Made by a program: the position numbers and the translations under genes. The notes under the pieces were generated by a model. That model did no database searches. It was given only the letters and a program-made list of their open reading frames with translations, and had not been told where the DNA came from. Positions 2,081 to 57,938 of a stretch of 64,000 nt of DNA are shown one piece after another (positions within the stretch are counted from its first letter, which is position 1; every line of letters starts with the position of its first letter). Source of the stretch: Minisyncoccota bacterium (GTDB lineage: Bacteria > Patescibacteriota > Minisyncoccia > Phycocordibacterales > JBAYGS01); assembly GCA_041666545.1 (NCBI GenBank), contig JBAYGS010000004.1, forward strand, positions 8,610 to 72,609, in the 5' to 3' direction.

Positions 2081-2130
2081 AATTGTAAAAAGATTTGCAG
2101 TTTTAAATCAAATCGGCTAAGATACGCCCT

Positions 2131-4397: not shown

Positions 4398-4425
4398 TTG
4401 ACTCCAAAATGTCCCCGTGTATAAT
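4398..4425 (+). promoter_or_regulatory. Sigma70-like promoter upstream of the 16S rRNA gene (TTGACT-16-TATAAT)
   Basis: ttgact at 4398-4403 and tataat at 4420-4425, ~245 nt upstream of the 16S 5' end. Confidence 0.5.
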
Positions 4426-4735
4426 AGACCCCACGCTCTAAGTAGGGCGGGGGTCTTTGACAATTTGAAGTAATAAGAAGATATGAGAATCGCCCAAGTA
4501 AAGTCTTGGGCTAATGCAAGTCTCATAATGTAATTTTAAAGTGATTGCTAGGATAGATGAACAATTTAACTTTTAGCAGGTTAAGTAGAAACATTCTTTG
4601 TTTTGTTCCGTTCTAAACTTAAAAAAATTAATCAAAACTTTCGCAAGAGAGTTTTTCTAATTTTTATTAAGAGTTTGATCCTAGCTCAGGATGAACGCTG
4701 GCGGCGTGGATAAGGCATGCAAGTCTAGGGGGTCC

Positions 4736-4872
4736 GGCACTTTGCGCGGAAGTGGCAAAGCGAATGACCAATAACCAAGAGACAAATTCCAAACTAGAGA
4801 GTGTTTGGTTATTGTTTATTGGAATTTGGAATTTCACTTTGTTTGCTTATGAGCAAAGTGCTGGATCACCGG
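4736..4872 (+). repeat. Hairpin-ended expansion element (IVS) within the 16S V1-V2 region, copy 1
   Basis: Starts ggcactttgcgcggaagtggcaaagcg (self-complementary hairpin) and ends cactttgtttgcttatgagcaaagtgctgg (hairpin). Same termini as the element at 6497-6642. Confidence 0.55.
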
Positions 4873-5525
4873 CAGACGAGGTAGTAATAAATAGGTACGA
4901 ACCTTCGAGTCAAGAATAGTCCGTCGAAAGACGGGGTAATCCTTGATAGTCCCTTCGGGGTAAAGATTTATCGCTCGATGATCGGCCTATTCAGTATCAG
5001 CTAGTTGGTAGGGTAATGGCCTACCAAGGCAATGACGCTTAGGGGGGGTGAGAGCCTGTTCCCCACCGATGGAACTGAGATACGGTCCATACACCTACGG
5101 GTGGCCGCAGCCGAGAATATTCGACAATGGGCGAAAGCTTGATCGAGCGACGCCGCGTGATTGATGAAGTCCTTCGGGACGTAAAGATCTTTTATGAGGG
5201 AGGAAGTTTATTGACGTTACCTCATGAATAAGGGGTTGCTAAACTCGTGCCAGCAGCAGCGGTAATACGAGTGCCCCAAGCGTTATCCGGAATCACTGGG
5301 CGTAAAGGGTGTGTAGGCGGTAGTGTTAGTCTTGTGTCAAATTCTTCGGCTTAACCGGGGTACGCACGGGAAACGGCACTGCTAGAGGATGCGAGGGGTC
5401 TCTGGAACTCATGGTGTAGCGGTGAAATGCGTTGATATCATGGGGAACACCAAAAGCGAAGGCAAGAGACTGGAGCACTCCTGACGCTGAAACACGAAAG
5501 CGTGGGTAGCGAATGGGATTAGATA

Positions 5526-6138
5526 AACGCTCGCCTTAGCTTTTTAAAAACGCGCATAAAGTCCTGGTGGACTTTTGCTATACTCGGCCTCACGGCCTGC
5601 GCTGTTTTTAAAAAGCTAAGGCTCGCTCCTGTGAAAAGGAGAAGAGAAAGAGCAAATGTCTCATCTACTAGTGATAGTAGAAAGCAAATTTGGCTATATG
5701 CTGGAAACTCCGTTGTATCCGACAATACCGAAAGGTAAAAATTTGTCGGTGCGGACAATCAGCAGGAAACTTGTATGTGTTGAGAAGGGGATTCGGATTG
5801 TAATCTTTGGGAAGGCAACAGCGTAAGCCTCTGTATGTGGACAGAGAAACTGCGCACTACCCCAAGGCTCTTACCTTCTGGGACAGCGTGTTAAAGCGCA
5901 CTCCCTGTGTGACCAGTCAGTGTGATTGGTCACACCTCCTTCCCAGCACATATTAAGGATCCTCAGAGACTAAACGCCAGACCCCTGAATTTCAGGGTGA
6001 AGATATAGTCCGTTCTGCATAGCGATATGTAGAGACAAGCAGAAATGACTTGTCCTAGTAATTTTTAATTTTAAATTGTAATTTTTCATTTTGAGATTTA
6101 CATTTTAATTTTTAATCGTTACTTCGTAACAATTAAGA
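5526..6138 (+). mobile_element. ORF-less ~610 bp insertion (putative self-splicing intron/IVS) in the 16S between GGATTAGATA and CCCCAGTAGTCC (E. coli ~position 790)
   Basis: The conserved block ATTAGATACCCTGGTAGTCC is split by 613 bp. No protein-like ORF. Contains an AT-rich tract at 6061-6120. Confidence 0.5.
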
Positions 6139-6233
6139 CCCCAGTAGTCCACGCCCTAAACGATCTTCTCTGGTTTTTCGGAGTATCGACCCTCTGAGAG
6201 ACGAAGCTAACGCGTTAAGAGAAGCGCCTGGGT

Positions 6234-6265
<32 letters not shown>

Positions 6266-6496
6266 AGACGGGGACTTGCACAAGCGGTGGATCATGTGGT
6301 TCAATTCGACGGTAAACGAAAAACCTTACCAGGGTTAGAAATCTAATCGAAGGCTAGCAGAAACGTTAGTCGTCTCACAAGGACGGTTAGACAGGTGTTG
6401 CATGGCCGTCGTCAGTTCGTGGTTTGAACTGTTCCCTTCAGTGGGGTAACGAACGCAACCCTCGTTGCCTGTTATATTTGTCAGGCGAGACTGCCC

Positions 6497-6642
6497 AGCA
6501 CTTTGCGCGGAAGCGCAAAGTGAGTTGAAAGTGAAAAGTTTATAAAGTCTGTAAAGTAAAGCAAAGAGCTCTGCTTTATGAACTTTCAACTTTATAACTT
6601 TATAAACTCACTTTGTTTGTTTGCGAACAAAGTGCTGGGAGG
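6497..6642 (+). repeat. Hairpin-ended expansion element (IVS) within the 16S (~E. coli 1130 region), copy 2
   Basis: Starts cagcactttgcgcggaagcgcaaagtg and ends cactttgtttgtttgcgaacaaagtgctggg. Inserted between gactgccc and ggaggaaggcgaggatgacg. Confidence 0.55.
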
Positions 6643-6863
6643 AAGGCGAGGATGACGCCAGGTCAGCATGGCCCTTTGATACCCTGGGCCACACACGTGA
6701 TACAATGCCGATTACAACGGGATGCGACGGGGAAACCCTGAGCCAACCCTAAGAAAAATCGGCCAAGTTCGGATTGAGGTCTGCAACTCGACCTCATGAA
6801 GCTGGAATCGCTAGTAATCACAGGTCAGCTATACTGTGGTGAATACGTTCTCAAGTCTTGTAC

Positions 6864-8151
6864 TCGGGTCGCCATGCGATCGAGTACGCTAGTTGGTGCT
6901 CCAGTTGTAATTTTTGGGAAGTTAAAAAACCCGCCGATAAGCGGGATGTGTACGGGCTTGGAATAAATTATCCCAGCCGTCTGTTCACGGCAGGTTGAAG
7001 AAAGCTCTCGCAGAGATAGTTTGGCAGGGAAATGAGACATATCACGGCCACCGGAACAGCGATACAGATGATGGTCAGAACGAGGAAAAAGGTTTCAGTT
7101 TTCGTAGTCCTCATAAGAATCCTCTCTGTCGCGATGGTATCTAATTTTAATAGAATTGTCAAGCAAGGCTTGACCCCAAAAATTACAACTGGAAAATCCA
7201 ACCAAGACAATTCACAGTGTCTTGAAGCGAAATACTAGTCCCGACGCCGTGAGGGGTCGGGATGAAGGAGTAAAGTAGCATTTCTTAGCTTGAATGCCAG
7301 TTATGGCGCATAACAGAGGTTATCCTGCGAGTACATGGAGAAGCCTACTGTGTTTTAAAAACTGTTATGCGTATCGTGGCATCGAGATGAGAAGAAACAG
7401 TGTATTCGGTCACCGTGGGAGGTCTTGCATTTTCCTCGTTGTGTTATACACACCGAGAAATTGTATTAGTAATGATACAATCATGAGATGCAAGAAGTCA
7501 GCAGAGTTCGTAGTACCAAAAGGAAAGATGCTCGGTTTAACCCCAAGCTAGAACTTCCTCTTGGGAAGGAACAAATTCAAAGGAAAAAGTTACATCCTCA
7601 ATATGTTGCAGGATTTATTGATGGAGAAGGATCTTTTTCGATTAGTATTGGAAAGCACAAAACTTTGCGTAGAGGTTTCGAAATTCGTCCGGAATTTGAA
7701 ATAGAATTACGGAAGGACGATCAAGAAATCTTGGAGCGAATACTTGTGACTATCGGAATTGGAAAAATTTACGATTGCTCATACGAGCGATACGGATGGT
7801 ATCCACATGCGAAGTACAAAATTATGAGCATCTGGGACCTGAAAGAATATTTATTTCCATTTCTCGATAAAAATCCATTACAAGCGAAAAAGAAAAAATC
7901 CTATCTACTTTTTAGGCAAATAGTTTTGATGATTTGCGCTAAGAAACATTTGTCTGATAGGGGATTTAACAAAATCGTAAAACTTCGCGACGAGCTTCGC
8001 GCTCTAGGGAAGAAAGCTAAAACTTATCATGGCAAGGTAAGTGAATTCGAGAAAAAAATCGAATAAGCAACCTTTGAAAAACGCGAGGGTGCGGGAAAAC
8101 CGCTTGCCCCGTGTTGAAGAGAAGTGTAATGGCAACATTATACAACATCAA
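6864..8151 (+). mobile_element. Group I-type intron in the 16S (near E. coli position ~1390, between CTTGTAC and ACCGCCCGTCA) carrying a homing endonuclease gene
   Basis: ~1.29 kb inserted into the universally conserved GTACACACCGCCCGTC block. Contains the LAGLIDADG ORF at 7488-8066. Confidence 0.7.
7488..8066 (+). CDS. LAGLIDADG-family homing endonuclease (intron-encoded)
   Basis: 192 aa. Canonical motif LHPQYVAGFIDGEGSFSISI. Basic C-terminus. Located inside the rRNA intron. Confidence 0.8.
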   Translation: MQEVSRVRSTKRKDARFNPKLELPLGKEQIQRKKLHPQYVAGFIDGEGSFSISIGKHKTLRRGFEIRPEFEIELRKDDQEILERILVTIGIGKIYDCSYERYGWYPHAKYKIMSIWDLKEYLFPFLDKNPLQAKKKKSYLLFRQIVLMICAKKHLSDRGFNKIVKLRDELRALGKKAKTYHGKVSEFEKKIE

Positions 8152-8493
8152 ATACCGCCCGTCAACTCAAGGGAGTTGGGAGCGCCCGAAATCTCACGCA
8201 AGTGGGCCTAAGGCGAGCTCAATGACAGGGAGTAAGTCGTAACAAGGCACGGGTAGCGGAAGCTGCTCGTGGATTATTTCAAATTGAACAACGTTGAATG
8301 CCTATTTATTTATGCATCTCAACTTAATCGGTCGTTATCGCGTATTCCATATGGATACACGATGTCCGCCTGAGGGGCTAATTTCAGGGGATAGTGATTC
8401 GATATCCTAAAAGTGAATCTGACATCGGGAAAGACTGGACGCGACACGAAAGTGTCTCGAGGAACGGAACAAAATAAAGCATGTTTCAAAAGC

Positions 8494-8521
8494 AAAAACC
8501 GCCCAAAAGGGCGGTTTTTGC
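8494..8521 (+). terminator. Rho-independent terminator downstream of the 16S
   Basis: aaaaccgcccaaaagggcggtttttgc stem-loop plus T-run. Confidence 0.6.
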
Positions 8522-8536
8522 TTGCCTTAATCTAGA

Positions 8537-8565
8537 TTGACTTTTTAATCAAAATATGATATAAT
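8537..8565 (+). promoter_or_regulatory. Sigma70-like promoter (TTGACT-17-TATAAT)
   Basis: ttgact 8537-8542, tataat 8560-8565. 47 bp upstream of the CDS 8612; an AGGAG Shine-Dalgarno precedes the ATG. Confidence 0.5.
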
Positions 8566-8611
8566 AGCCCGAGATTTAAAAAAGTTCCCGAACAATCAAA
8601 AAAGGAGACTT

Positions 8612-9271
8612 ATGTCAAAAGAAGACAAGAAGCTGTTCGGGGATTTCCTGTTCTGGCTTCAGTTTGCGATGGCTTGGGTCTTCACTGTACCCCAAGTTAT
8701 TCGGTCGTTCTACAGCACGAAGGGTATGACCATCACTTGGTCAATGTTTTGTGCGCTATTCGTCCTAGTCAATCTCTTTTTGGCGCTCGGCGCCTATCGA
8801 GATTCTCGAAGTCGCAAGGCCGGGCAGGTGGTGTTCGTTTATGCCAACTGGCTCCTGCTTTGGTCGGTCATGTTTGTCGTCGCCAGTCTCAAAGGAGTCT
8901 GGACTACAACCGACAGCTTACTTAGCATAATCATTGTGATTGGCGTCGCGATTCTCTTGTTGGCTCGCAAGAGGGAATCGTTGTTTGCAACCATCACTGA
9001 GCCGATCACTCGCGGAATTGTTTCGCTGATCGTTAAAAGTGTCCCGCAGCTCTACATCGGGTATTGCATCGTGAGGGACGGCAACAATTCCGGATTGGTT
9101 GGGACGACTCTCCTGATCGGCCATGTCACGGTGCTCATCCGGATCTTCGAGATCTGTTTGGCCGCTAGACAGGATGGCTGGAGCCGGAAAAACCAAGGTC
9201 TGTTCATCAGCGAGGCTGGCAACGAGTCAACCTGGCTAGTCACAACAGTCATCTGGCTGGCCTACTGGTAG
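8612..9271 (+). CDS. Integral membrane protein (multi-TM, possible PQ-loop-like), hypothetical
   Basis: 219 aa, ~6 predicted hydrophobic helices. TVPQVIRSF motif. No confident family assignment. Confidence 0.5.
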   Translation: MSKEDKKLFGDFLFWLQFAMAWVFTVPQVIRSFYSTKGMTITWSMFCALFVLVNLFLALGAYRDSRSRKAGQVVFVYANWLLLWSVMFVVASLKGVWTTTDSLLSIIIVIGVAILLLARKRESLFATITEPITRGIVSLIVKSVPQLYIGYCIVRDGNNSGLVGTTLLIGHVTVLIRIFEICLAARQDGWSRKNQGLFISEAGNESTWLVTTVIWLAYW

Positions 9272-9539: not shown

Positions 9540-9582
9540 GCGCCGGCAACTCCTCCGAGGAGTTGCCGGCGCTAATTGTTTG
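9540..9582 (+). terminator. Rho-independent terminator (perfect 14-16 bp stem)
   Basis: gcgccggcaactcctccgaggagttgccggcgc followed by taattgttt. Confidence 0.55.
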
Positions 9583-9794: not shown

Positions 9795-9868
9795 GCGCGT
9801 ATAGCTCAGGTGGTTAGAGCGCGTCACTGATAATGACGAGGTCCCACGTTCAACTCGTGGTACGCGCA
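9795..9868 (+). tRNA. tRNA-Ile (anticodon GAT)
   Basis: 74 nt. Acceptor gcgcgta/tacgcgc. D-arm gctc-aggtggtta-gagc. Anticodon arm cgtca-CTGATAA-tgacg. T-arm ccacg-ttcaact-cgtgg. Discriminator A. No encoded CCA. Confidence 0.8.
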
Positions 9869-11512: not shown

Positions 11513-11684
11513 TATAAGGTGAGGCCCCTTGGCGGGCTTGCTTTTTTTCTCAAGATATGCTATAATTCATAACAGAACGGTACCTTGTAATTGCAAGGAA
11601 ATCCTGCAGAAGACACGCCCTAAACCGCTTGTTGCGGTCGGGTAAAACCACGGGGTTATAGCCCCACAGAAAGAAAGGAAGACA

Positions 11685-13121
11685 GTGAAAACTGAAACAG
11701 TTGCGAAGACTCCGATCCCCGTTGACGAGATTCTCACTCACGCTCGCGCCCACTGGGACGAGTTGGTGGCGTGGAAACTGTTGATATGGTACGGGGAGAA
11801 GTTTTTCCCCGGAATCAGTAAGGCGAAGCTTTTCTTCGCCGGAGCCACGACTGAAGGGACGGACGCGATGTTCGACCAGCGGAAGATTCTTCGGATTGCG
11901 TGTGGCGGGCGTTTCGATGAGCACCGCAACGGTGGCAGTGGCCGGATTCCGGGCAAGTGCTCGACCATCCTGGTCGCGGATTACATTGAGTTGGCGGATG
12001 CCCCGTATCTCCGACGCCTCTTTAAAGAGACCCTGGAGTGCGACGAGCGGAATGTCTCAGCGACTCGGTTCCCGCAGATTATGAAAGCCGCCTATCGGGC
12101 TTTTCCGAATGACCCGGCCTTCATCTTCAGGAAATCGCAGTGTGTCGTCGCGGCCATCATCAAGGCGGAGATGTGCCAGTTCGCCCCCAAAGCGAACGAG
12201 CCGACCCTGACCTCACTCTTTGAGGAGGTGCTCAAGGAACGGGCGGAGCACTTCACCGACGAGAAGGCGATTGAGCACATCAAGCGCCTCTACGCCGAGA
12301 GCGACCGCGCGGGTGAAGAGTTCGTCACCGAGCTCTCCTTCATCGTGAAGGCGATGTTCCGGCGGGATGACCCGATCAAGGACATCTCGGACTGGGTGTG
12401 GTTTGTGAGTGGTATTCTCTACGCCGACCAAGTGGCCTTTCGCACAGCGAGGGACTTCTGCAAAGCCAACGCGGTTGAACACCGTGTGGTAATGCAAAAC
12501 GGTCGGCACCTCCGCCTCGGTGTGGTCCAGACCGACCTCGAGTCGGCCTTGCAGGTGATGTTGTACTTCAAGTACGACATCGTGATTATCAAGAACGGCA
12601 AGGGTCAGGTGCAAGTCTGCACCGCGAAGTCGGCTCGGGAACGCCATGGGGTGAATCTCGGCAACTTTGTCCGCATGTGGCGGTGGCTCGAGTTGCCGGT
12701 TCAGGATAAGGAGACCTACACCTGGCAGCAGTTGGGTGTCGCCGGGAATCACGAAGGGGTAGATACGGTCTACTACCATCGCGGTTCGCAGGAGGCGTCG
12801 GTCGAGAACGCCTACAATGGAACGACCACTCACCCGAATGTCCCGCCGACGCGAGTCGCGCTCGACATGTTGGTGAACTGTATCCAACACGCCTTCACTG
12901 TGGACGGTGTGGCGCAGTGGATGCGGGGTCGGGCGGTCCGGATGGAGAAGCGGGTGAAGGTGGTGGTGCCGAAGGCGACGACCCCGAAGCCTCAGCCGGC
13001 AGTGGAAGCGGTAGCTCCCCAGGCGCCGGTAGTGGCATCGAGTGAGCCGAAAGGTCCGGTGACGGATGTGGAGGCTGCCTTCGCGAAGGCTGCGGTGGTC
13101 GACGAAGGTGAAGGGAAGTAG
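11685..13121 (+). CDS. Hypothetical protein in the high-GC island (478 aa), with low-complexity P/A/V/K-rich C-terminal tail
   Basis: GTG start preceded by AAGGAAG Shine-Dalgarno. GC ~60%+. No recognised domain. The antisense strand carries only R/H/P-rich nonsense ORFs. Confidence 0.5.
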   Translation: MKTETVAKTPIPVDEILTHARAHWDELVAWKLLIWYGEKFFPGISKAKLFFAGATTEGTDAMFDQRKILRIACGGRFDEHRNGGSGRIPGKCSTILVADYIELADAPYLRRLFKETLECDERNVSATRFPQIMKAAYRAFPNDPAFIFRKSQCVVAAIIKAEMCQFAPKANEPTLTSLFEEVLKERAEHFTDEKAIEHIKRLYAESDRAGEEFVTELSFIVKAMFRRDDPIKDISDWVWFVSGILYADQVAFRTARDFCKANAVEHRVVMQNGRHLRLGVVQTDLESALQVMLYFKYDIVIIKNGKGQVQVCTAKSARERHGVNLGNFVRMWRWLELPVQDKETYTWQQLGVAGNHEGVDTVYYHRGSQEASVENAYNGTTTHPNVPPTRVALDMLVNCIQHAFTVDGVAQWMRGRAVRMEKRVKVVVPKATTPKPQPAVEAVAPQAPVVASSEPKGPVTDVEAAFAKAAVVDEGEGK

Positions 13122-13145
13122 GCAGGGACTTGCAAGCAGGACAGT

Positions 13146-13183
13146 GGCCCGGGAACGCGCAGCGCGTTTCCGGGCCTTTTTAT
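13146..13183 (+). terminator. Rho-independent terminator
   Basis: ggcccgggaacgcgcagcgcgtttccgggcc + ttttt. Confidence 0.6.
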
Positions 13184-13303
13184 TACAAATATTTACAAAT
13201 AGCGGCCTTGTGCTCCAATGTACACAGGACTCCCCTGTGTAAACGGTGGAGGTGGCTAAAATAAGCCATTTTTTGGGAAATATCAATGATTTGTCAAAAA
13301 TGC

Positions 13304-13332
13304 TTGACAAACGACTTCAAATTTGCTATAAT
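13304..13332 (+). promoter_or_regulatory. Strong sigma70-like promoter (TTGACA-17-TATAAT) with overlapping TTGTCAA/TTGACAA palindrome
   Basis: ttgaca 13304-13309, tataat 13327-13332. AT-rich promoter embedded in GC-rich DNA. The inverted repeat ttgtcaaaaatgcttgacaa overlaps the -35. Confidence 0.55.
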
Positions 13333-13437
13333 ATGCACAGAAAACCTGAAAGAAAGATCTCGACTGGGTCTCGGCACTTCGCCGGATAAGGGGCACCTGT
13401 CCCACCAAAGTTGAGATGCAGAAACGAAAGAAGCGAT

Positions 13438-14448
13438 ATGAAAACAAACAAAATGCTGGAAGCTGGCAACCAAACCATCAAGGCGCGTCGCGGCGTGGTG
13501 AAGTTTGTGTCCCGCACCAAGGGATACGGTTTCGTCACCGGCGTCGAAGGCGTGGGTGGCCAGGATGTCTGGTTCCCGATTGACGACATCGGCAACATCA
13601 TCGCTGGCGATAACCATCCCAGGATCCTGCGCGACAACCGTGTGCAGCTCTTCCCGGGAACCGTGGTCATGATTCTCGCGCCGTTCGACGGCAGGGGGAG
13701 TCTGGCGACCGATGGGGTCGGACGGCTCATGGATTACGTCGACGCCGAGCGCGAAATCGCGAAGCGGCCGTACTTCCGGGTCATGCATCTGGACACGCGT
13801 TTCAACGGTCAGAAGATGACCGCGGGCGCGCGCGAGGTGCAGTACGCTGAAGGCACACTGGCCCAGCTGGAACGGGAGTTTCCGATCGGCACGCCGAACG
13901 ATCCGTTGGCGAAGGGCTATAAGACGGCGGTGGTGACGGTTCCGGCGGTTCGCTGGGATCGGCGCCAGGCCGACGGGAGCTGGAAGGTGCAAAGCACCGA
14001 TCCTCGGCGTTGGGCGCAAGCTCCGGAGCCGAAGGTTCCGGCGGTCATGCTCCAGCCGATTGCGAAGCCGACCGGGACTCCAGCGCCTCTGATGGTTCGG
14101 GTGCTCAAGGTCGGTGCCGGTGGCGGCACGCAGGTCTGGGCCGGTCCCATCGTCGAGTTGAGCAAGTCCACGGAGTTCACCGGGGCTGGCTACACCGTCG
14201 AGAAGGTCGACGGCACGGTCAATGGCGAAGTCGCCTGGACCGAGATCGCTGACCCGCGCGCGAAGGTCGCTCCGAGCGTGCCGACTCCGGCCCGCCAAAA
14301 GGCCGCCAAGCCGGCTCAACCCGTCAAGGGTTCCGGCCAGACCGCCCCCACTGGCGTGTCGGTCGCCCCGGCCAAGAAGGCGAAGTCGGTGCAGACGGTC
14401 AAGGGCCTCGACGCCCTGTCCATCGCCCCGGCTCCGGCTGGCAAGTAG
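13438..14448 (+). CDS. Cold-shock-domain-like N-terminus protein with K/A/P-rich histone-H1-like C-terminal tail; hypothetical
   Basis: GVVKFVSRTKGYGFVTGVEGVGGQDVWFPIDDI resembles a CSD (GxVKWFNxxKGFGFI...DVFxH). The C-terminus ARQKAAKPAQPVKGSGQTAPTGVSVAPAKKAKSVQTVK is low-complexity. ATG at 13438 (the track's TTG start at 13411 is also possible). GC ~63%. Confidence 0.5.
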   Translation: MKTNKMLEAGNQTIKARRGVVKFVSRTKGYGFVTGVEGVGGQDVWFPIDDIGNIIAGDNHPRILRDNRVQLFPGTVVMILAPFDGRGSLATDGVGRLMDYVDAEREIAKRPYFRVMHLDTRFNGQKMTAGAREVQYAEGTLAQLEREFPIGTPNDPLAKGYKTAVVTVPAVRWDRRQADGSWKVQSTDPRRWAQAPEPKVPAVMLQPIAKPTGTPAPLMVRVLKVGAGGGTQVWAGPIVELSKSTEFTGAGYTVEKVDGTVNGEVAWTEIADPRAKVAPSVPTPARQKAAKPAQPVKGSGQTAPTGVSVAPAKKAKSVQTVKGLDALSIAPAPAGK

Positions 14449-14471
14449 CTTGAGTCCTCACGGACTCGCAA

Positions 14472-14506
14472 CCCCCGCAACACGCAAGTGTCTGCGGGGG
14501 CTTTTT
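14472..14506 (+). terminator. Rho-independent terminator
   Basis: cccccgcaacacgcaagtgtctgcggggg + cttttt. Confidence 0.6.
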
Positions 14507-14541
14507 GTTAAGAACCCTTACGAATAGGGCACACGAATAAG
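14507..14541 (-). repeat. 35-bp repeat family, copy A (reverse orientation)
   Basis: gttaagaacccttacgaatagggcacacgaataag is the reverse complement of the consensus yTTATTCGTGTGCCCTATTyGTAAGGGTTCTCAAC. Confidence 0.7.
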
Positions 14542-14603
14542 CAGAATGCTTTACAAATTTTCTATGCCGTGATACAGTTCTAAAGGAAAGGTGGTGATAA
14601 AAA

Positions 14604-15191
14604 GTGCGTTGTTATACAGCCTATTTCCCAAGGCCCGAGGAGCTCCCTGATAATCTCAAGGATGCTGACTTCAAATTGGGTGACCTAAAGCTGGTTGACG
14701 GTATTAAGGTTGAGGGTGAGAATGACGCGATCATTCTGGGGCAGGTCCCTGGTGATCGAGTTGGCTTGCCTTTGAGCAAGTCTCGTCCACCCGAGGTGAG
14801 TGATGGCCACATCTTTTCCGGTGATCTAATTGATGAAGATGGCGAGCAGGTGCTTGCGCTTTCAGCAACAACCCCGCCGAGACATGTGACCGAAAAAGCT
14901 GTGCCGATTTTACTTTGCGTTCGGTTGTTTTGTTCGGGTGATTCCAAGATCGACGGTTTCTTTCGAGTCTTGGCAGAACCAGCTTCAACTGTTCTTGCGG
15001 TTGGGGGGGTTGCTAAGGTTGGCAGTCATCAAGGGGCTTTTTACCAGGATGTTTTGGTTCTTTTGGAACAGGGTGGCGTTATTCAGGTTAGGCCGGCGGC
15101 GGTCCATCCACCCAAAGATTTCGTTATCCGCTACACGGGCACCGGAATCAATTATTTGACGATGCAGGACTATTTGTCTCTGCCTCCGTGA
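14604..15191 (+). CDS. Hypothetical protein (195 aa)
   Basis: GTG start with AAGGAAAGGTGG SD. TTTACA-17-TACAGT promoter at ~14553-14581. Own terminator. GC ~52%. Confidence 0.45.
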   Translation: MRCYTAYFPRPEELPDNLKDADFKLGDLKLVDGIKVEGENDAIILGQVPGDRVGLPLSKSRPPEVSDGHIFSGDLIDEDGEQVLALSATTPPRHVTEKAVPILLCVRLFCSGDSKIDGFFRVLAEPASTVLAVGGVAKVGSHQGAFYQDVLVLLEQGGVIQVRPAAVHPPKDFVIRYTGTGINYLTMQDYLSLPP

Positions 15192-15197
15192 AATCTT

Positions 15198-15229
15198 CCG
15201 CCCCTCGCGTCGCGCGAGGGGCTTTTCTT
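15198..15229 (+). terminator. Rho-independent terminator
   Basis: ccgcccctcgcgtcgcgcgaggggc + ttttctt. Confidence 0.6.
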
Positions 15230-15256
15230 ATTTGTGTAAAGTTTTCCGACTCCTTC

Positions 15257-15304
15257 TTTTGGTTATTGTTTCTTGGTTATTGATTATTGTTCGAGGGTTC
15301 TTAA
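15257..15304 (+). repeat. 'ggttattg'-rich spacer plus partial 3' end of the 35-bp repeat
   Basis: ttttggttattgtttcttggttattgattattgtt followed by cgagggttcttaac (matches the repeat 3' end aagggttctcaac). Confidence 0.5.
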
Positions 15305-15311
15305 CTATCTT

Positions 15312-15346
15312 CATATTCGTGTGCCCTATTTGTAAGGGTTCTCAAC
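15312..15346 (+). repeat. 35-bp repeat family, copy B (forward)
   Basis: catattcgtgtgccctatttgtaagggttctcaac. Confidence 0.7.
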
Positions 15347-15405
15347 TGTTTTCTTTTCCCAGTTATCCTGCTATTCTTGAGCAGAAAGTTCTTCCCAAGG
15401 TTTTT

Positions 15406-16032
15406 ATGAAAGCTTTTGAATTCCGATTCGGTCCGAATGGTAAGGCTGTCTGGACTATTGGTATCGGTCGCGAGGTTTTCAAATTTCGCGACAAGACTTG
15501 TCACGGCTTGTCGCTGGGACAGGAAGGTTGTCGGCATCTTGGCCGCAACGGCAACGAAAAAATCCTGTTCGATCGATCTCAACCGCCGATTGTTGATGCC
15601 AGTTGCGCTCGGGTCCTGGAGTGCTCGATTACGGCAGTTTCTACCAGGAAAAAGGACCGTCGGCCGGCTTACCGTTCGCACCACTTTATCTTATCAGCTC
15701 CTCGTGATAACGACTCCAGAATTCTGGTCAGGGTTGTCTCGAGGTCGTTGCTCAACAGGTATCGTTCGAGCGCTGATGGTAAAGTGAGCTTTCTTAAAGA
15801 CCCTACTCGACAGCCGATCGCGCTCGGTTTTGGTCATAATGTCTTCAATGATCTAAACAGTGGTGTCTGGACCGACGAGCTCTTGATTATGAATCTCGGC
15901 GACGCCGTGAATGTTCATCCGGCCGGAATCCAGACCGTATTCTTCGATCAAGTTTTATATTATGATGACCCTGCCAGTCTTCCTATGTGTGTGGCTGGCT
16001 ATGGCTATAAGCGCGATCGGCATTTGGACTGA
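15406..16032 (+). CDS. Hypothetical protein (209 aa from ATG 15406; track ORF starts TTG 15232)
   Basis: MKAFEFRFGPNGKAVWTIGIGREVFKF... Preferred start is downstream of repeat copy B. Own terminator. Confidence 0.4.
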   Translation: MKAFEFRFGPNGKAVWTIGIGREVFKFRDKTCHGLSLGQEGCRHLGRNGNEKILFDRSQPPIVDASCARVLECSITAVSTRKKDRRPAYRSHHFILSAPRDNDSRILVRVVSRSLLNRYRSSADGKVSFLKDPTRQPIALGFGHNVFNDLNSGVWTDELLIMNLGDAVNVHPAGIQTVFFDQVLYYDDPASLPMCVAGYGYKRDRHLD

Positions 16033-17519: not shown

Positions 17520-18416
17520 CTAGAATCGGTTTACCACGACCAGATTCCGTTTTTTGCTGTCGGGTCCGTTGCCAGCCCGCCTGCAAGACCAGAGAGCAAA
17601 GTCACCGCTTGAATCCTTGTCGCCAAAGGTGTCGAGACCGTCATGAAACGGGACAGTCGGTTCGACTTTACCGAAGGACCTGAACTGTCTTGCAATCAGT
17701 AGCTCCAAGTCGAGACAGCCCAGGTCGGGGCTTCCTAAAAATACCTCATGACCAAAATGTTTGGTCAGGTAGCGAATCATTGACCGGTTACGTTCGCCGT
17801 ATGTCACCTCGTGGACACTGTGGCAGAAATTACGGCCGGCAATTCCGCAGGTGATGAAGAAGCGTAAGTTTTTCGGACGCTCACCTTGGAAACTCTTGAG
17901 AGCATTTCGGACCACTGATTGGTACAAATGAGTCCCAAAACCTTGGCCGATGGCCACACGGTCGATAACTGATTCTCGGCCAGCGTGAAAGACAACGGTT
18001 TTGTCGGTTTCAGTGCTCCAGAGGATTACCGTCGGGCAATCGGCCGAGGAGATCATGAAACTGTGCCAAGCCGGCAACTCAATTCCGTCAGCTTCGCCGT
18101 TTACCATGGGTGTTTTTTCGACTGGGCCGCTGACTTCCGTCCCGCGCAGAATATTTGAGGAATCGACATGAAAACAGGTGTCGAATTCGTTGAGGCGGGC
18201 GATTCGCCGGTTGAACTTTGAGGCGTTGGGCGCATAGAAAGTTCGGACGGCAAAACTTGAACAGACTCGGGCAATCATCGGACGGAAATTGCTTGCAATC
18301 GGCTTTCTCAATTGTTCCAGATTCCAATCAATTATCTGATCTTGGATTTTTCGGCCGAAGACAGAGACAACCAAGCGATCATGCAGGGCTTTCGACCATA
18401 AAGGGGCGGGTTTCAT
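17520..18416 (-). CDS. Laccase-domain / YfiH (PgeF) family protein, putative peptidoglycan editing factor
   Basis: 298 aa. ADCPTVILW...VVFHAGRESV matches the ADCVPVLL...HAGWRG signature of DUF152/PgeF. Confidence 0.55.
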   Translation of the reverse strand: MKPAPLWSKALHDRLVVSVFGRKIQDQIIDWNLEQLRKPIASNFRPMIARVCSSFAVRTFYAPNASKFNRRIARLNEFDTCFHVDSSNILRGTEVSGPVEKTPMVNGEADGIELPAWHSFMISSADCPTVILWSTETDKTVVFHAGRESVIDRVAIGQGFGTHLYQSVVRNALKSFQGERPKNLRFFITCGIAGRNFCHSVHEVTYGERNRSMIRYLTKHFGHEVFLGSPDLGCLDLELLIARQFRSFGKVEPTVPFHDGLDTFGDKDSSGDFALWSCRRAGNGPDSKKRNLVVVNRF

Positions 18417-18519
18417 TTGTCCTTTCTTTTGATGAGCTATTCTTGGGTGATTCTACCCGCTTGGCCAAAAGTGTCAATTGATTGCTTTTGTTTTGGTATT
18501 TTTTTGCTAAGATGACCCT

Positions 18520-20954: not shown

Positions 20955-21087
20955 TAGAAGTGGAAGGTTCTTTGAGTTAAACGGGTTTTAGACCCAAAAG
21001 AGCTAAAACGAGACAAGTTGGTCTTTGGCGAACACGTCTCAAACAAGGGCCTAAAGCACCAAGTGCTCGGCCAGAGAAGGACAAGTT

Positions 21088-21829: not shown

Positions 21830-21935
21830 ATGCTTTTCTTCTGTTCTTATACTTATACCTATACTTCATACCTACACTATCTCCCTGTTCCACTCGTGTC
21901 TCTTTTGTGGTATAGTCGCGCCAGAAAGGATTCCT

Positions 21936-56502: not shown

Positions 56503-57912
56503 ATGCATCAGAGAGTCGTATTTTTAACTCTATTTGAAGGGATCGAGGGGAAAAATCTGCTGCGGTCTCCCTTTGTTAGTCATTTGCTGTCCGGCCAGGA
56601 TATTAAAATTGTCTGTTTTGTTAAAAATGACGAGAGGAAGATTGGCTATGAAAAGCTCTTCAAACATCCGAGGCTGTTTTTTGAGGCCGTCGATTTTCCT
56701 AAAACAGTTTGGCCGGAAAAAATTTTTGCGACTCTGAAGTTTTATCAGATTTGGACTGAAACTACGGATTTGCGAGCTAAGATGGTCAAAGAGCGCGACG
56801 GTCAATTTTTTGCCTATTATTTTAAGCTTTTGCTTCATCGAGTATTGGCACGGCGACTCATGAGAGTCGTCATCCGTTTCCTCGATAGCCGGCTAATAAA
56901 AGATCGGACTTTTAAAAAGTATTTTAAAAAATACCAGCCGAGTTTGATTATTTGCGCCCAGTTGTTTGAAGAGATTGAGGTCCATTTGGTCAAGCGGGCC
57001 AAAGCTGAAGGCGTGAAGACTGTTTGCTTCATTAATACTTGGGACAAAGTCACAGCCAGAAACGCTTTCCGTGTTCTAGTCGATAAGTTTATAACTTACA
57101 ATGAGATCGTTAAGACTGAGCTCATCGAAAATGATGATGTGAAGGCTCAAGACGTTTACGTATCCGGAATCCCTCAATACGATTATTTCTTTGATGACTC
57201 GGCTCTTGAAATAATCAAAGAGACTTTCAAGATTGAGGTGCCAAAGCTCCGGACTCGAGAGGAGTTTTTGAATAGTATCGGTCTTACCAAAGATGAGAGG
57301 TTTATTTTCTACGCTCCGGTTGGCAGTGTCTATAGTAATGACGATTGGGCGATTATTGATCTTTTGACGGAATCAATAAAGCAAGGACAGTTTGGCTCCG
57401 GTCTCGAGCTCTTTGTCCGGTTTCCACCAAATGATTTTGTAAACAAAGCTGAGTCTGACAAGAGAAAAGATCTTCATTTTTATGCTCCGGGAATCCGTTT
57501 CTCTTCGAAGCGGGGGAGCGACTGGGATATGAGTTTTGCAGATATCATGTCGCTCAAGGAAACTCTCAAATACTCAGAGTTGGTAATTTGCTATGCCTCC
57601 AGTATCTCAATTGATGCCAGTATCTTTGAAAAACCCATCATTAATATAAATTTCATAACTCGGGCCTCGAGTTTGATGATTAAAACACCTACAGCGTTTT
57701 ATCCCATGACCCATTATCAAAAGGCGCTCAAGACAGGGGCGATTGATTTGGCAAGCTCAAAGGAGGAAATGATTGAGCTCATAAAGGGTTATATTAAGAG
57801 TCCAGATGAAAATCGGGGTAATCGTGATAATCTGGTGGCTCGGCAGTGCCAATTTAAGGATGGCTTGGCTGGCAAGCGAATGGCCGATTTTGTGAAGTCC
57901 TGCTTGACATAA
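56503..57912 (+). CDS. TagB/TagF-family glycerophosphotransferase-like protein, paralog 4
   Basis: 469 aa. RFIFYAPVGSVY. CYASSISIDASIFEKPIININFI. Confidence 0.5.
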   Translation: MHQRVVFLTLFEGIEGKNLLRSPFVSHLLSGQDIKIVCFVKNDERKIGYEKLFKHPRLFFEAVDFPKTVWPEKIFATLKFYQIWTETTDLRAKMVKERDGQFFAYYFKLLLHRVLARRLMRVVIRFLDSRLIKDRTFKKYFKKYQPSLIICAQLFEEIEVHLVKRAKAEGVKTVCFINTWDKVTARNAFRVLVDKFITYNEIVKTELIENDDVKAQDVYVSGIPQYDYFFDDSALEIIKETFKIEVPKLRTREEFLNSIGLTKDERFIFYAPVGSVYSNDDWAIIDLLTESIKQGQFGSGLELFVRFPPNDFVNKAESDKRKDLHFYAPGIRFSSKRGSDWDMSFADIMSLKETLKYSELVICYASSISIDASIFEKPIININFITRASSLMIKTPTAFYPMTHYQKALKTGAIDLASSKEEMIELIKGYIKSPDENRGNRDNLVARQCQFKDGLAGKRMADFVKSCLT

Positions 57913-57938
57913 TAGCCTTTTTGCATTCTAATATTTAG

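Follow-up and report, generated by a model that had tools for sequence, protein, structure and literature searches.

A lost anti-Shine-Dalgarno sequence and a constrained 16S rRNA 3′ tail in a Paceibacteria lineage

[quoted passage not shown] The closest case is a subgroup of Parcubacteria in which CCUCCU is missing from this end: CCTCCT was found in just 48% of the 16S genes of Parcubacteria, lineages that miss it overlap the group lacking uL1, and Shine-Dalgarno (SD) helices were suggested not to form there (Tsurumaki et al. 2022, RNA 28:1041, PMC9297842). Here we analysed a 64-kb stretch of contig JBAYGS010000004.1 (hereafter the window, to which all coordinates refer), whose 16S gene belongs to the same clade and shows the same trait. 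The rplA (uL1) region lies outside the window. The loss itself is already published for this Parcubacteria subgroup, and the window is one more documented member. The published account gives motif detection rates only, and reports neither the replacement tail, its hairpin and SD usage nor the leaderless signals and GAAAGG tracts described below.

Recurrent anti-SD loss in reduced genomes has been reported by Nikolaeva et al. (PMC7782861) and is also credited to Lim 2012 and Amin 2018, as these are cited in PMC9297842 and PMC7782861. These losses likewise go with degeneration of the 16S tail, small genomes and simplified ribosomes, and they concern mostly insect endosymbionts and Mollicutes scattered within phyla, whereas the present loss is fixed throughout a large free-standing clade whose tail remains under selection. 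Bacteroidia with SD-blind ribosomes, such as Flavobacterium johnsoniae, likewise have no SDs genome-wide and A-rich upstream regions, and a strong SD-like site with a special purpose is retained in very few of their genes (rpsU) (PMC13000453), similar to the purine tracts found here. However, Bacteroidia retain the anti-SD, hidden under bS21, bS18, and bS6 (PMC13000453), whereas the 16S of the window has no such sequence. As the anti-SD is gone here, the purine tracts of the window cannot act by unmasking it.

Leaderless initiation, as used in mitochondria, many archaea, Actinobacteria, and Deinococcus, places the start codon at or near the 5′ end of the mRNA, with the -10 box about 7 nt upstream, and the small-subunit (SSU) rRNA of mitochondria likewise has no anti-SD. 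The present case differs from these systems in that such promoter spacing, read from the sequence alone, is seen in only about a quarter of operon-first genes. We consider it likely that the window carries a functional, intron-bearing 16S gene of a Paceibacteria bacterium (Parcubacteria, Candidate Phyla Radiation (CPR)) whose lineage lost the anti-SD and chooses its start codons without rRNA–mRNA pairing.

The 16S 3′ end and the tail in place of the anti-SD

Rfam identified one bacterial SSU rRNA gene in the window, on the forward strand (Table 1). The whole-window match to RF00177 covers 4663-6890 and stops early because of a 1.29-kb insertion. A local re-scan of 8100-8420 aligned 8100-8284 to the SSU model up to position 1533 (E=8e-23), and the exonic parts align pairwise to E. 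coli rrsH, with the gene resuming at 8153, past the insertion. Positions 8153-8274 correspond to E. coli 1396-1532. Within them lie the decoding-centre strand, helix 44, and AAGUCGUAACAAGG, as well as helix 45, which is intact; AAGTCGTAACAAGG is located at 8234-8247. This stretch, with the letters that follow it, is the true 16S 3′ end. GGAT ends at 8274 and is followed by TATTTCAAATTGAAC (after GGAU, UAUUUCAAAUUGAAC), so the RNA reads GGAU-UAUUUCAAAUUGAA where the canonical form is GGAU-CACCUCCUUA; in the Rfam alignment, GGAUcACCUCCUUu of the window stands opposite GGAUUAUUUCAAAU of the model. The tail keeps G1530, A1531, U1532, and the A at 1534 (E. coli numbering).

An earlier reading of the window from its sequence only had described this end as a helix 45 equivalent followed by a sequence that appears to lack the canonical CCUCC, with none seen within 250 nt downstream. 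The description was exact, and both claims are confirmed: the forward strand has no CTCC in 8275-8620, and neither CACCTCC nor ACCTCCT occurs within 300 nt in any of 94 anti-SD-less sequences, window included. The sole CCTCC ahead of the tRNA-Ile gene lies at 9552, past a terminator-like hairpin and a gene. The trailer arm of a pre-16S leader-trailer helix at 8462-8474 shows that the precursor extends about 200 nt beyond GGAU without any CCUCC. This helix was found by an exact-complement search, as folding the whole leader against the trailer gave a duplex no better than shuffles; the complement is 13 nt long, whereas 300 shuffles averaged 8.0 and reached 13 at most.

The loss is a trait of the lineage and not an artefact. 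Relatives were sampled by scanning one genome per species with a pattern made of the U1491 signature, the helix 45 loop, and GGAU; as nothing else was fixed, the tail itself was sampled without bias. Among the 120 loci recovered, CACCUCC follows GGAU in 27 and is absent in 93, and the comparison with related 16S 3′ ends that the sequence-only reading had proposed thus returned the same type of tail clade-wide. In a neighbour-joining tree of 655 aligned 16S positions, rooted on four anti-SD-bearing taxa (two of them, L040 and L082, labelled Andersenbacteria), the anti-SD-less loci form one clade apart from these four. The same tail is found in the independent assemblies L038, L051, L054, and L124; the 20-nt tail of L038 is identical to that of the window, and that of L124 almost so. 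Labels on the nearest 16S relatives read Parcubacteria, Taylorbacteria, or Paceibacteria, and one protein encoded in the window is 100% identical to a protein from a ‘Candidatus Paceibacterota’ metagenome-assembled genome (MAG) at NCBI, which places the window in Parcubacteria/Paceibacteria. Some record titles conflict with their 16S. The ‘Spiroplasmataceae’ MAG L007 (JAYUTB010000010.1) has a Paceibacteria-type helix 45 and tail, as do many CAY* and CAZ* MAGs titled ‘uncultured Candidatus Saccharibacteria’, probably through mis-binning or default taxonomy labels.

The tail that replaces the anti-SD does not appear free to drift. UUC occupies positions +4 to +6 in 90 of the 94 anti-SD-less tails, and in 89 of these 90 it is followed by GA after a gap of 1-7 nt. 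We aligned 71 distinct tails by structure, anchoring them by hand on TTC and GA and padding the loops with N, because MAFFT left tails with variable loops ungapped. At the inner (fourth) stem pair, which adjoins UUC/GAA, 42 tails have A:U, 24 have C:G, 3 have U:A, and 2 have no pair; at the outer pair, 46 have U:A, 6 have U:G, and 19 have no pair. In L008 the outer pair has changed from U:A to G:C (GUCA..UGAC). The switch from A:U to C:G requires four independent events on the 16S tree (3-6 across 100 bootstraps). In helix 45, 99.9% of cells are paired across the 71 tails and four pairs show double changes. The covariation of helix 45 and tail hairpin taken jointly was not approached by any shuffle or slid register. 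The UUC would thus pair with the downstream GAA to form a hairpin of 3-5 bp. Its arms are 3-5 nt long and its loop varies from 2 to 7 nt, which argues for an RNA hairpin over a fixed DNA palindrome. No copy of the tail palindrome able to pair with the tail was found upstream of the 16S. A limited literature search found no description of the covarying tail hairpin or of GAAAGG-type tracts.

The hairpin most likely descends from a pairing between the anti-SD and the start of the 3′ trailer. In anti-SD-bearing loci the anti-SD pairs with this region, as CUCCU-UUCUA-GGGAG (Andersenbacteria-type) or CUCCU-UUCUA-AGGAG (Planctomycetota). Three loci, L013, L050, and L105, of which only L050 is labelled as a Minisyncoccia MAG, have the tail GGAU-CACUUCUUAUCUAGAGAA, in which CUUCU replaces the CCUCC core; the two C-to-U changes on the anti-SD side are offset by G-to-A changes on the trailer arm, so that the pairing UUCUU-AUCUA-GAGAA is kept. 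L050 and L105, the two that were placed in the tree, sit near the base of the anti-SD-less clade. This tail may be an intermediate toward loss of the anti-SD, and the clade tails CAAUUCC, UAAUUCC, and UAUUUCA share its UUC. Near the variant tails, two clear open reading frames (ORFs) retain AGGAGG or AAGGAGG. The clade tail may have been formed by substitution, with CACCUCC becoming CAAUUCC, or alternatively through deletion of CACCUCCUUUC; such a deletion would place the trailer hairpin beside GGAU, as suggested by L012 (CACCUCCUUUCUA-UUCAAUUGAA).

Whichever the origin, the constraint on the tail looks like that of an element for maturation or protection of the pre-16S 3′ end, and this, not mRNA binding, is most likely what the hairpin serves. 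The usual constraint on the tail beyond SD pairing is explained by Era, which recognises GAUCACCUCC during 30S maturation (Tu 2009 and 2011, as presented in PMC10582724). Most CPR, and among them most Paceibacteria, lack era (PMC10582724; PMC12641178), which fits a relaxed constraint on the tail.

The 16S gene holds at least four insertions: one at about 4726-4860, a larger one with the group I intron, one at about 6496-6637, and the 1.29-kb insertion, which carries a LAGLIDADG endonuclease ORF at 7488-8066 (Pfam PF00961, E=4e-20) and an Rfam group-II-D1D4-1 match at 7458-7571 (50.8 bits). In helix 44, the pair C1409-G1491, relevant to aminoglycoside binding, is A-U in the window (8165, 8233). 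A tRNA-Ile(GAU) gene at 9795-9868 comes after the 16S, with a membrane-protein gene (8612-9271) between them. The window holds no 23S rRNA, so the rRNA genes are unlinked.

Probable choice of start sites without rRNA-mRNA pairing

SD motifs are not enriched ahead of genes in the anti-SD-less clade. We scored the cores AGGA, GGAG, and GAGG at -20 to -3 and used internal ATGs and shuffles as controls. A core lies upstream of 7 of the 51 window genes (14%), against 13% for internal ATGs and 9% for shuffles, and duplexes with the canonical anti-SD average -1.69 kcal/mol for the window genes, -2.97 for internal ATGs, and -1.53 for shuffles. The sequence-only reading had stated that native genes mostly lack SDs and had named anti-SD free energies as a check; run on the window genes, this check gave values close to shuffles, with no SD enrichment, and the statement holds. 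Among relatives, a core precedes 11% of 290 ORFs in anti-SD-less loci (shuffles 8%) versus 34% of 77 in anti-SD-bearing loci (shuffles 13%), and the positional enrichment of GGAGG is 1.3-fold versus 5.9-fold. The top 4-mers near starts are TAAT, TTAA, AATA, and ATAA in the former and GGAG, AAGG, AGGT, AGGA, and GAGG in the latter.

Without rRNA-mRNA pairing, start sites would likely be chosen by three routes, as judged from sequence features. The first would be leaderless or very short-leader mRNAs. Of 230 operon-first ORFs in anti-SD-less loci, 58 have a -10-like hexamer ending at -12 to -5, a 2.8-fold enrichment per position over -45 to -13 with peaks at -7, -9, and -10, the main one at -7; a -10 box ending at -7 puts the start of transcription at the start codon. 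In a later run, 27 of 61 such ORFs (44%) had a TG extension, far above chance and as expected of genuine promoters. About a quarter of the operon-first genes, in which a -10 box ends 5-12 nt ahead of the ATG and is often TG-extended, might thus follow this route. In the window, genes 2131 (secD), 3475 (secF), 18520 (murC), 57939, and 61758 have a -10 box just ahead of the start. The second route would rely on A/U-rich upstream regions, presumably with little structure; these regions are A-rich, with 0.38-0.40 A at -14 to -6. The third would be termination-reinitiation at overlapping ATGA junctions within operons, which would suit the nine window genes that overlap the preceding stop by 4 or 8 nt.

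GC-rich genes with purine tracts

SD-like tracts in the window are concentrated on the GC-rich genes 8612, 11685, 14604, 17520 (reverse strand), 21088, and 21936. Those the sequence-only reading had pointed out before 11685, 14604, 21088, and 21936 are all present, and three of the four exact copies of AGAAAGGA in the window, on either strand, sit just upstream of starts. The 11.5-16 kb stretch holds real genes on the forward strand in which G- and C-ending codons are both raised, and the GC content at third codon positions (GC3) is 0.77-0.80 in the first two genes of the cluster versus 0.42-0.53 in the flanking pyk, murD-like, and murC genes. Each cluster gene has its own promoter, terminator, and leader of about 100 nt.

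This arrangement is found again in relatives. Locus L124 has the gene order of the window (pyk, 491 aa, 321 aa, 195 aa, 196 aa, murD-like, pgeF-like on the reverse strand, murC) with 16S exons about 95% identical and proteins 35-78% identical, and its orthologues are also GC-elevated; L127 repeats the four cluster genes in the same order. In five loci with proteins 52-75% identical to the one in the window, the promoter and leader of the 478-aa gene (11685-13121) are conserved, leader hairpins included. The invariant part of this leader includes GGGGTTATAGCCCC and CAGA[A/G]AGAAAGG, a tract that ends 6-8 nt before the start and that RNAalifold leaves unpaired. RNAalifold also paired the -10 box with the GGGGTTATAGCCCC hairpin, which we treated as an artefact, the -10 box being untranscribed. 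The orthologues of 14604 keep GGAAAG-N-(N)-GGTGATA, although the proteins of the window and L124 are only 38% identical. The 45 nt before the 13438 ATG are nearly identical in L124, where the proteins are only 48% identical. In L125, a distant homologue has GGAGCCATAGCTCC, then CAAGGAGAG, then ATG, with GC3 raised there and in two downstream neighbours; in L081 and L038 the tract is also present at homologues of the 478-aa protein and of the cold-shock-like protein, and the distant homologues in L125 and L081 combine it with raised GC3. Across clade ORFs, GAAAGG ending at -14 to -4 is 8.9-fold more frequent than elsewhere (15 of 395, about 4%), and tract-bearing ORFs exceed the median GC3 of their locus (p=5e-4, or p=0.017 when the window is left out), an association that was not found in anti-SD-bearing loci.

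A leader module, GNCC-UAAA-[4-bp hairpin]-UCGGNC, recurs at 11620-11650 and 21049-21073 of the window and in L124, L127, and L128, with one or two copies ahead of the 478-aa gene and a single copy ahead of 21088. Its hairpin covaries (CCGC/GCGG, UCAC/GUGA, GCAC/GUGC), and we regard it as a candidate cis-regulatory RNA without an Rfam match.

The products of these genes gave few matches. Ten ORFs in and around the GC-rich regions, on both strands, had no Pfam, PHROGs, or NCBIfam match above threshold, except the LAGLIDADG intron ORF. The predicted fold of the 478-aa protein (predicted local distance difference test (pLDDT) 82.9) has its best PDB matches mostly among DHH/DHHA1 phosphoesterases (PPX1, RecJ, DhhP, Cdc45), with low global TM-scores, as expected for a two-domain hinge protein. 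A PDB profile search with the family gave no match, and Pfam scans of each member gave only weak ChrB_C. The modelled fold suggests that the protein is probably a nucleotide or oligonucleotide phosphoesterase. Its motifs HxRPHxDE and GRFDEH presumably recall MYG1/UPF0160, and its C-terminal 60 residues are disordered and A/P/K-rich. The 13438-14448 product has an N-terminal cold-shock-like segment (weak NCBIfam CspE/retron-effector matches, E ~2e-3 to 6e-3) and a long A/P/K-rich tail. The homologue search gave 16 matches in 5.8 billion proteins, none outside this small family; the three contexts inspected, in L124, L125, and L127, look CPR-like, and the L128 and L129 records hold only the gene.

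Given the synteny and the conservation of the tracts in diverged homologues, the tracts are old and under selection, and not decaying relics. The GC-rich tract-bearing genes would then be an old conserved set with their own promoters and structured leaders, in which GAAAGG(A) may be selected for something other than canonical SD pairing.

Table 1 Features of the window and the basis of their assignment
Feature	Position	Strand	Basis or remark
-10 box TAAGAT, ending 8 nt before secD ATG 2131	2118-2123	+	Implies a leaderless mRNA or very short leader
16S-unit promoter, TTGACT-16 nt-TATAAT	4398-4425	+	Read from sequence
Pre-16S leader-trailer helix, leader arm TTTTGTTCCGTTC	4601-4613	+	13-nt exact complement of 8462-8474
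16S rRNA gene, insertion-interrupted	4663-8288	+	RF00177, 1133.8 bits and 78.6 bits (3′ part); alignment to E. coli rrsH
Group I intron within 16S	5597-6032	+	Rfam RF00028, 74 bits, E=6.7e-17
1.29-kb insertion at about E. coli 1395/1396	6865-8152	+	Alignment blocks versus E. coli; re-scan
3′ minor domain, decoding-centre strand and helix 44	8153-8247	+	Rfam re-scan alignment
Helix 45, 10 bp, GGAA loop, intact: CACGGGTAGC-GGAA-GCTGCTCGTG	8248-8271	+	Sequence and folding
Tail in place of the anti-SD, UAU-UUCA-AAU-UGAA	8275-8288	+	UUC at 8278-8280; mini-hairpin arms 8278-8281 and 8285-8288
Pre-16S leader-trailer helix, trailer arm	8462-8474	+	Exact complement of 4601-4613
Terminator-like hairpin and T run closing the 16S unit, AAAAACCGCCCAAAAGGGCGGTTTTTGC	8494-8521	+	Read from sequence; not listed by a later scan
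AAGGAG tract, 4 nt before ATG 8612	8602-8607	+	Own promoter TTGACT-17-TATAAT at 8537-8565
Conserved promoter and structured leader of the 478-aa gene, ending in GGGGTTATAGCCCC and CAGAAAGAAAGGAAGACA	11537-11684	+	Cross-locus conservation
GC-rich four-gene cluster	11685-16032	+	DHH-like 478 aa; cold-shock-like 13438-14448; 14604-15191; 15406-16032; syntenic in relatives
AAAGGAAAGGTGGTGAT tract before GTG 14604	14582-14598	+	L127 has the equivalent
AGAAAGGA tract before pgeF-like gene 17520-18416	18420-18427	-	Sequence
Extended -10 TGCTAAGAT, ending 7 nt before murC ATG 18520	18505-18513	+	Sequence
AGAGAAGGA tract before ATG 21088, after leader module GGCCUAAA-GCAC..GUGC-UCGGCC	21073-21081	+	Sequence
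AGAAAGGA tract before ATG 21936	21923-21930	+	Sequence
Promoter TTGACA-17 nt-TCTAAT, ending 7 nt before ATG 57939	57904-57932	+	Sequence

Alternative explanations and implications

Several points weigh against a lost anti-SD combined with starts chosen without pairing. Our placement of the mature 3′ end of the 16S and of the starts of transcription is inferred, as is the leaderless status, and our view is limited to the 64-kb window, so that a second rRNA operon elsewhere in the genome is possible. Two of the four hairpin pairs are invariant partly by construction, the alignment being anchored on them; the mini-hairpin is too weak to enter the minimum free energy fold of the window sequence; and the clade members L088, L098, and L124 lack or break it. 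The -10-like hexamers are only slightly rarer at operon-internal genes (18%) than at operon-first genes (23%), -35 matches barely exceed shuffles, and the starts of the clade ORFs are crude, taken as the first ATG of long ORFs. Finally, the conserved GAAAGG-type tracts show that some purine-rich recognition persists, for which this explanation does not account.

A different proposal would give these tracts a role. It is possible, though we hold it doubtful, that the anti-SD was remodelled rather than simply lost. The mini-hairpin, covarying and with the UUC locked in it, would stand in within one molecule for the SD-anti-SD or anti-SD-trailer helix, or descend from it. The small, ancient GC-rich gene set, with its DHH-type phosphoesterase, cold-shock-domain protein, and structured leaders, would use GAAAGG(A) at the ribosome-binding position as a specialised non-canonical channel for initiation or regulation, in a bacterium whose other genes would start without rRNA-mRNA pairing. 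Either a protein or strand invasion of the tail hairpin would read the tracts.

It is unlikely that the tail is instead a new anti-SD of changed specificity, in which UUC, UUUC, or UUCC would pair with GAA, GAAA, or GGAA, or AUUAAU or AUUAUU with AU-rich upstream regions, giving weaker pairing-based starts at least at the GAAAGG genes. The near-constant UUC, the positional enrichment of GAAAGG, and the placement of the AGAAAGGA copies would suit such pairing, the enriched near-start TAAT, TTAA, and ATTA are complementary to AUUAAU, and the 3′ arm of the hairpin (UGAA/GGAA) itself resembles such a purine tract. However, the duplex energy with the actual tail stays at control level (-2.84, against -3.19 for internal ATGs and -2.75 for shuffles), GAAAGG makes 4 bp at most with UAUUUC, and the tract precedes only about 4% of ORFs. 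Nor do upstream regions follow the tail: AAATA and AATAA are less frequent in genomes with UAU tails, and TTAAT and ATAAT show no difference from those with UAA tails. The AT-rich motifs are in 44% of cases TG-extended, which is promoter-typical.

The sequence-only reading had taken the SDs as a marker of recently arrived island genes. If the GC-rich genes were recent foreign DNA, their SD sites would be relics of a donor with a canonical anti-SD, which the raised GC3 (against about 0.4-0.5 in neighbours) and G- and C-ending codons, the resemblance of the tracts to the canonical extended SD AGAAAGGAGGTGAT, and the ten ORFs without a family would all suit. This is nevertheless improbable. The cluster has the same position and gene order in L124, and the order again in L127; GC is raised in all orthologues; and promoter, leader, and purine tract are conserved though the proteins have diverged to 35-67% identity. 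The distant CPR members of the family in L125, L081, and L038 share the tract and the raised GC3, homologues stay within the small family, and no integrase, tRNA junction, or flanking repeats were seen, repeats not having been searched systematically. Of the proposal that a divergent anti-SD is both a notable trait and a clock for the islands, the trait therefore stands, already published for the clade as it is, whereas the clock fails on a cluster that is old and syntenic.

Slightly less probable still is that the palindrome after GGAU acts as DNA, for example as the site of a dimeric regulator of rRNA transcription or termination, and not as an RNA hairpin. Most genomes have it as an inverted repeat that is perfect or nearly so (TTCAAATTGAA, TTCCAATTGGAA), and the predicted stability of the RNA is marginal. 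But a half-site spacing of 2-7 nt with arms of 3-5 would be unusual for a dimeric DNA site, the outer pair is U:G in 6 of the 71 tails, and the position is homologous to that of the anti-SD-trailer pairing of relatives. The reading that an anti-SD is present but displaced or missed, through a further intron or insertion after GGAU, mis-assembly, or a pseudogene with another functional copy, could appeal to the several insertions, the misplaced 3′ end of the first Rfam match, and a CACCTCCT 8-mer at 5933-5940 in the group I intron, but it is largely refuted and very improbable, as the 8-mer is at chance level (three in the window, the others at 12223 and 22180 on the minus strand, versus 1.1 expected, with 10 of 100 shuffles reaching three), the precursor is bounded by the leader-trailer helix and the terminator-like hairpin with no CTCC at its end, none of the 94 loci has CACCTCC or ACCTCCT within 300 nt, helices 44 and 45 are intact and covarying, and independent assemblies share the tail.

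From a practical perspective, loss of the anti-SD means that gene callers and start predictors that depend on SD models will place starts wrongly in the anti-SD-less clade, and that universal 3′-end 16S primers and probes will fail on it. From a biological perspective, the covariation of the tail hairpin shows a function of the 16S 3′ end that can be separated from mRNA binding and probably lies in maturation, a question currently open in Bacteroidia too (PMC13000453). Finally, as purine tracts at the ribosome-binding position are selected here without the canonical reader, the clade is a natural test bed for SD-independent translational enhancers.

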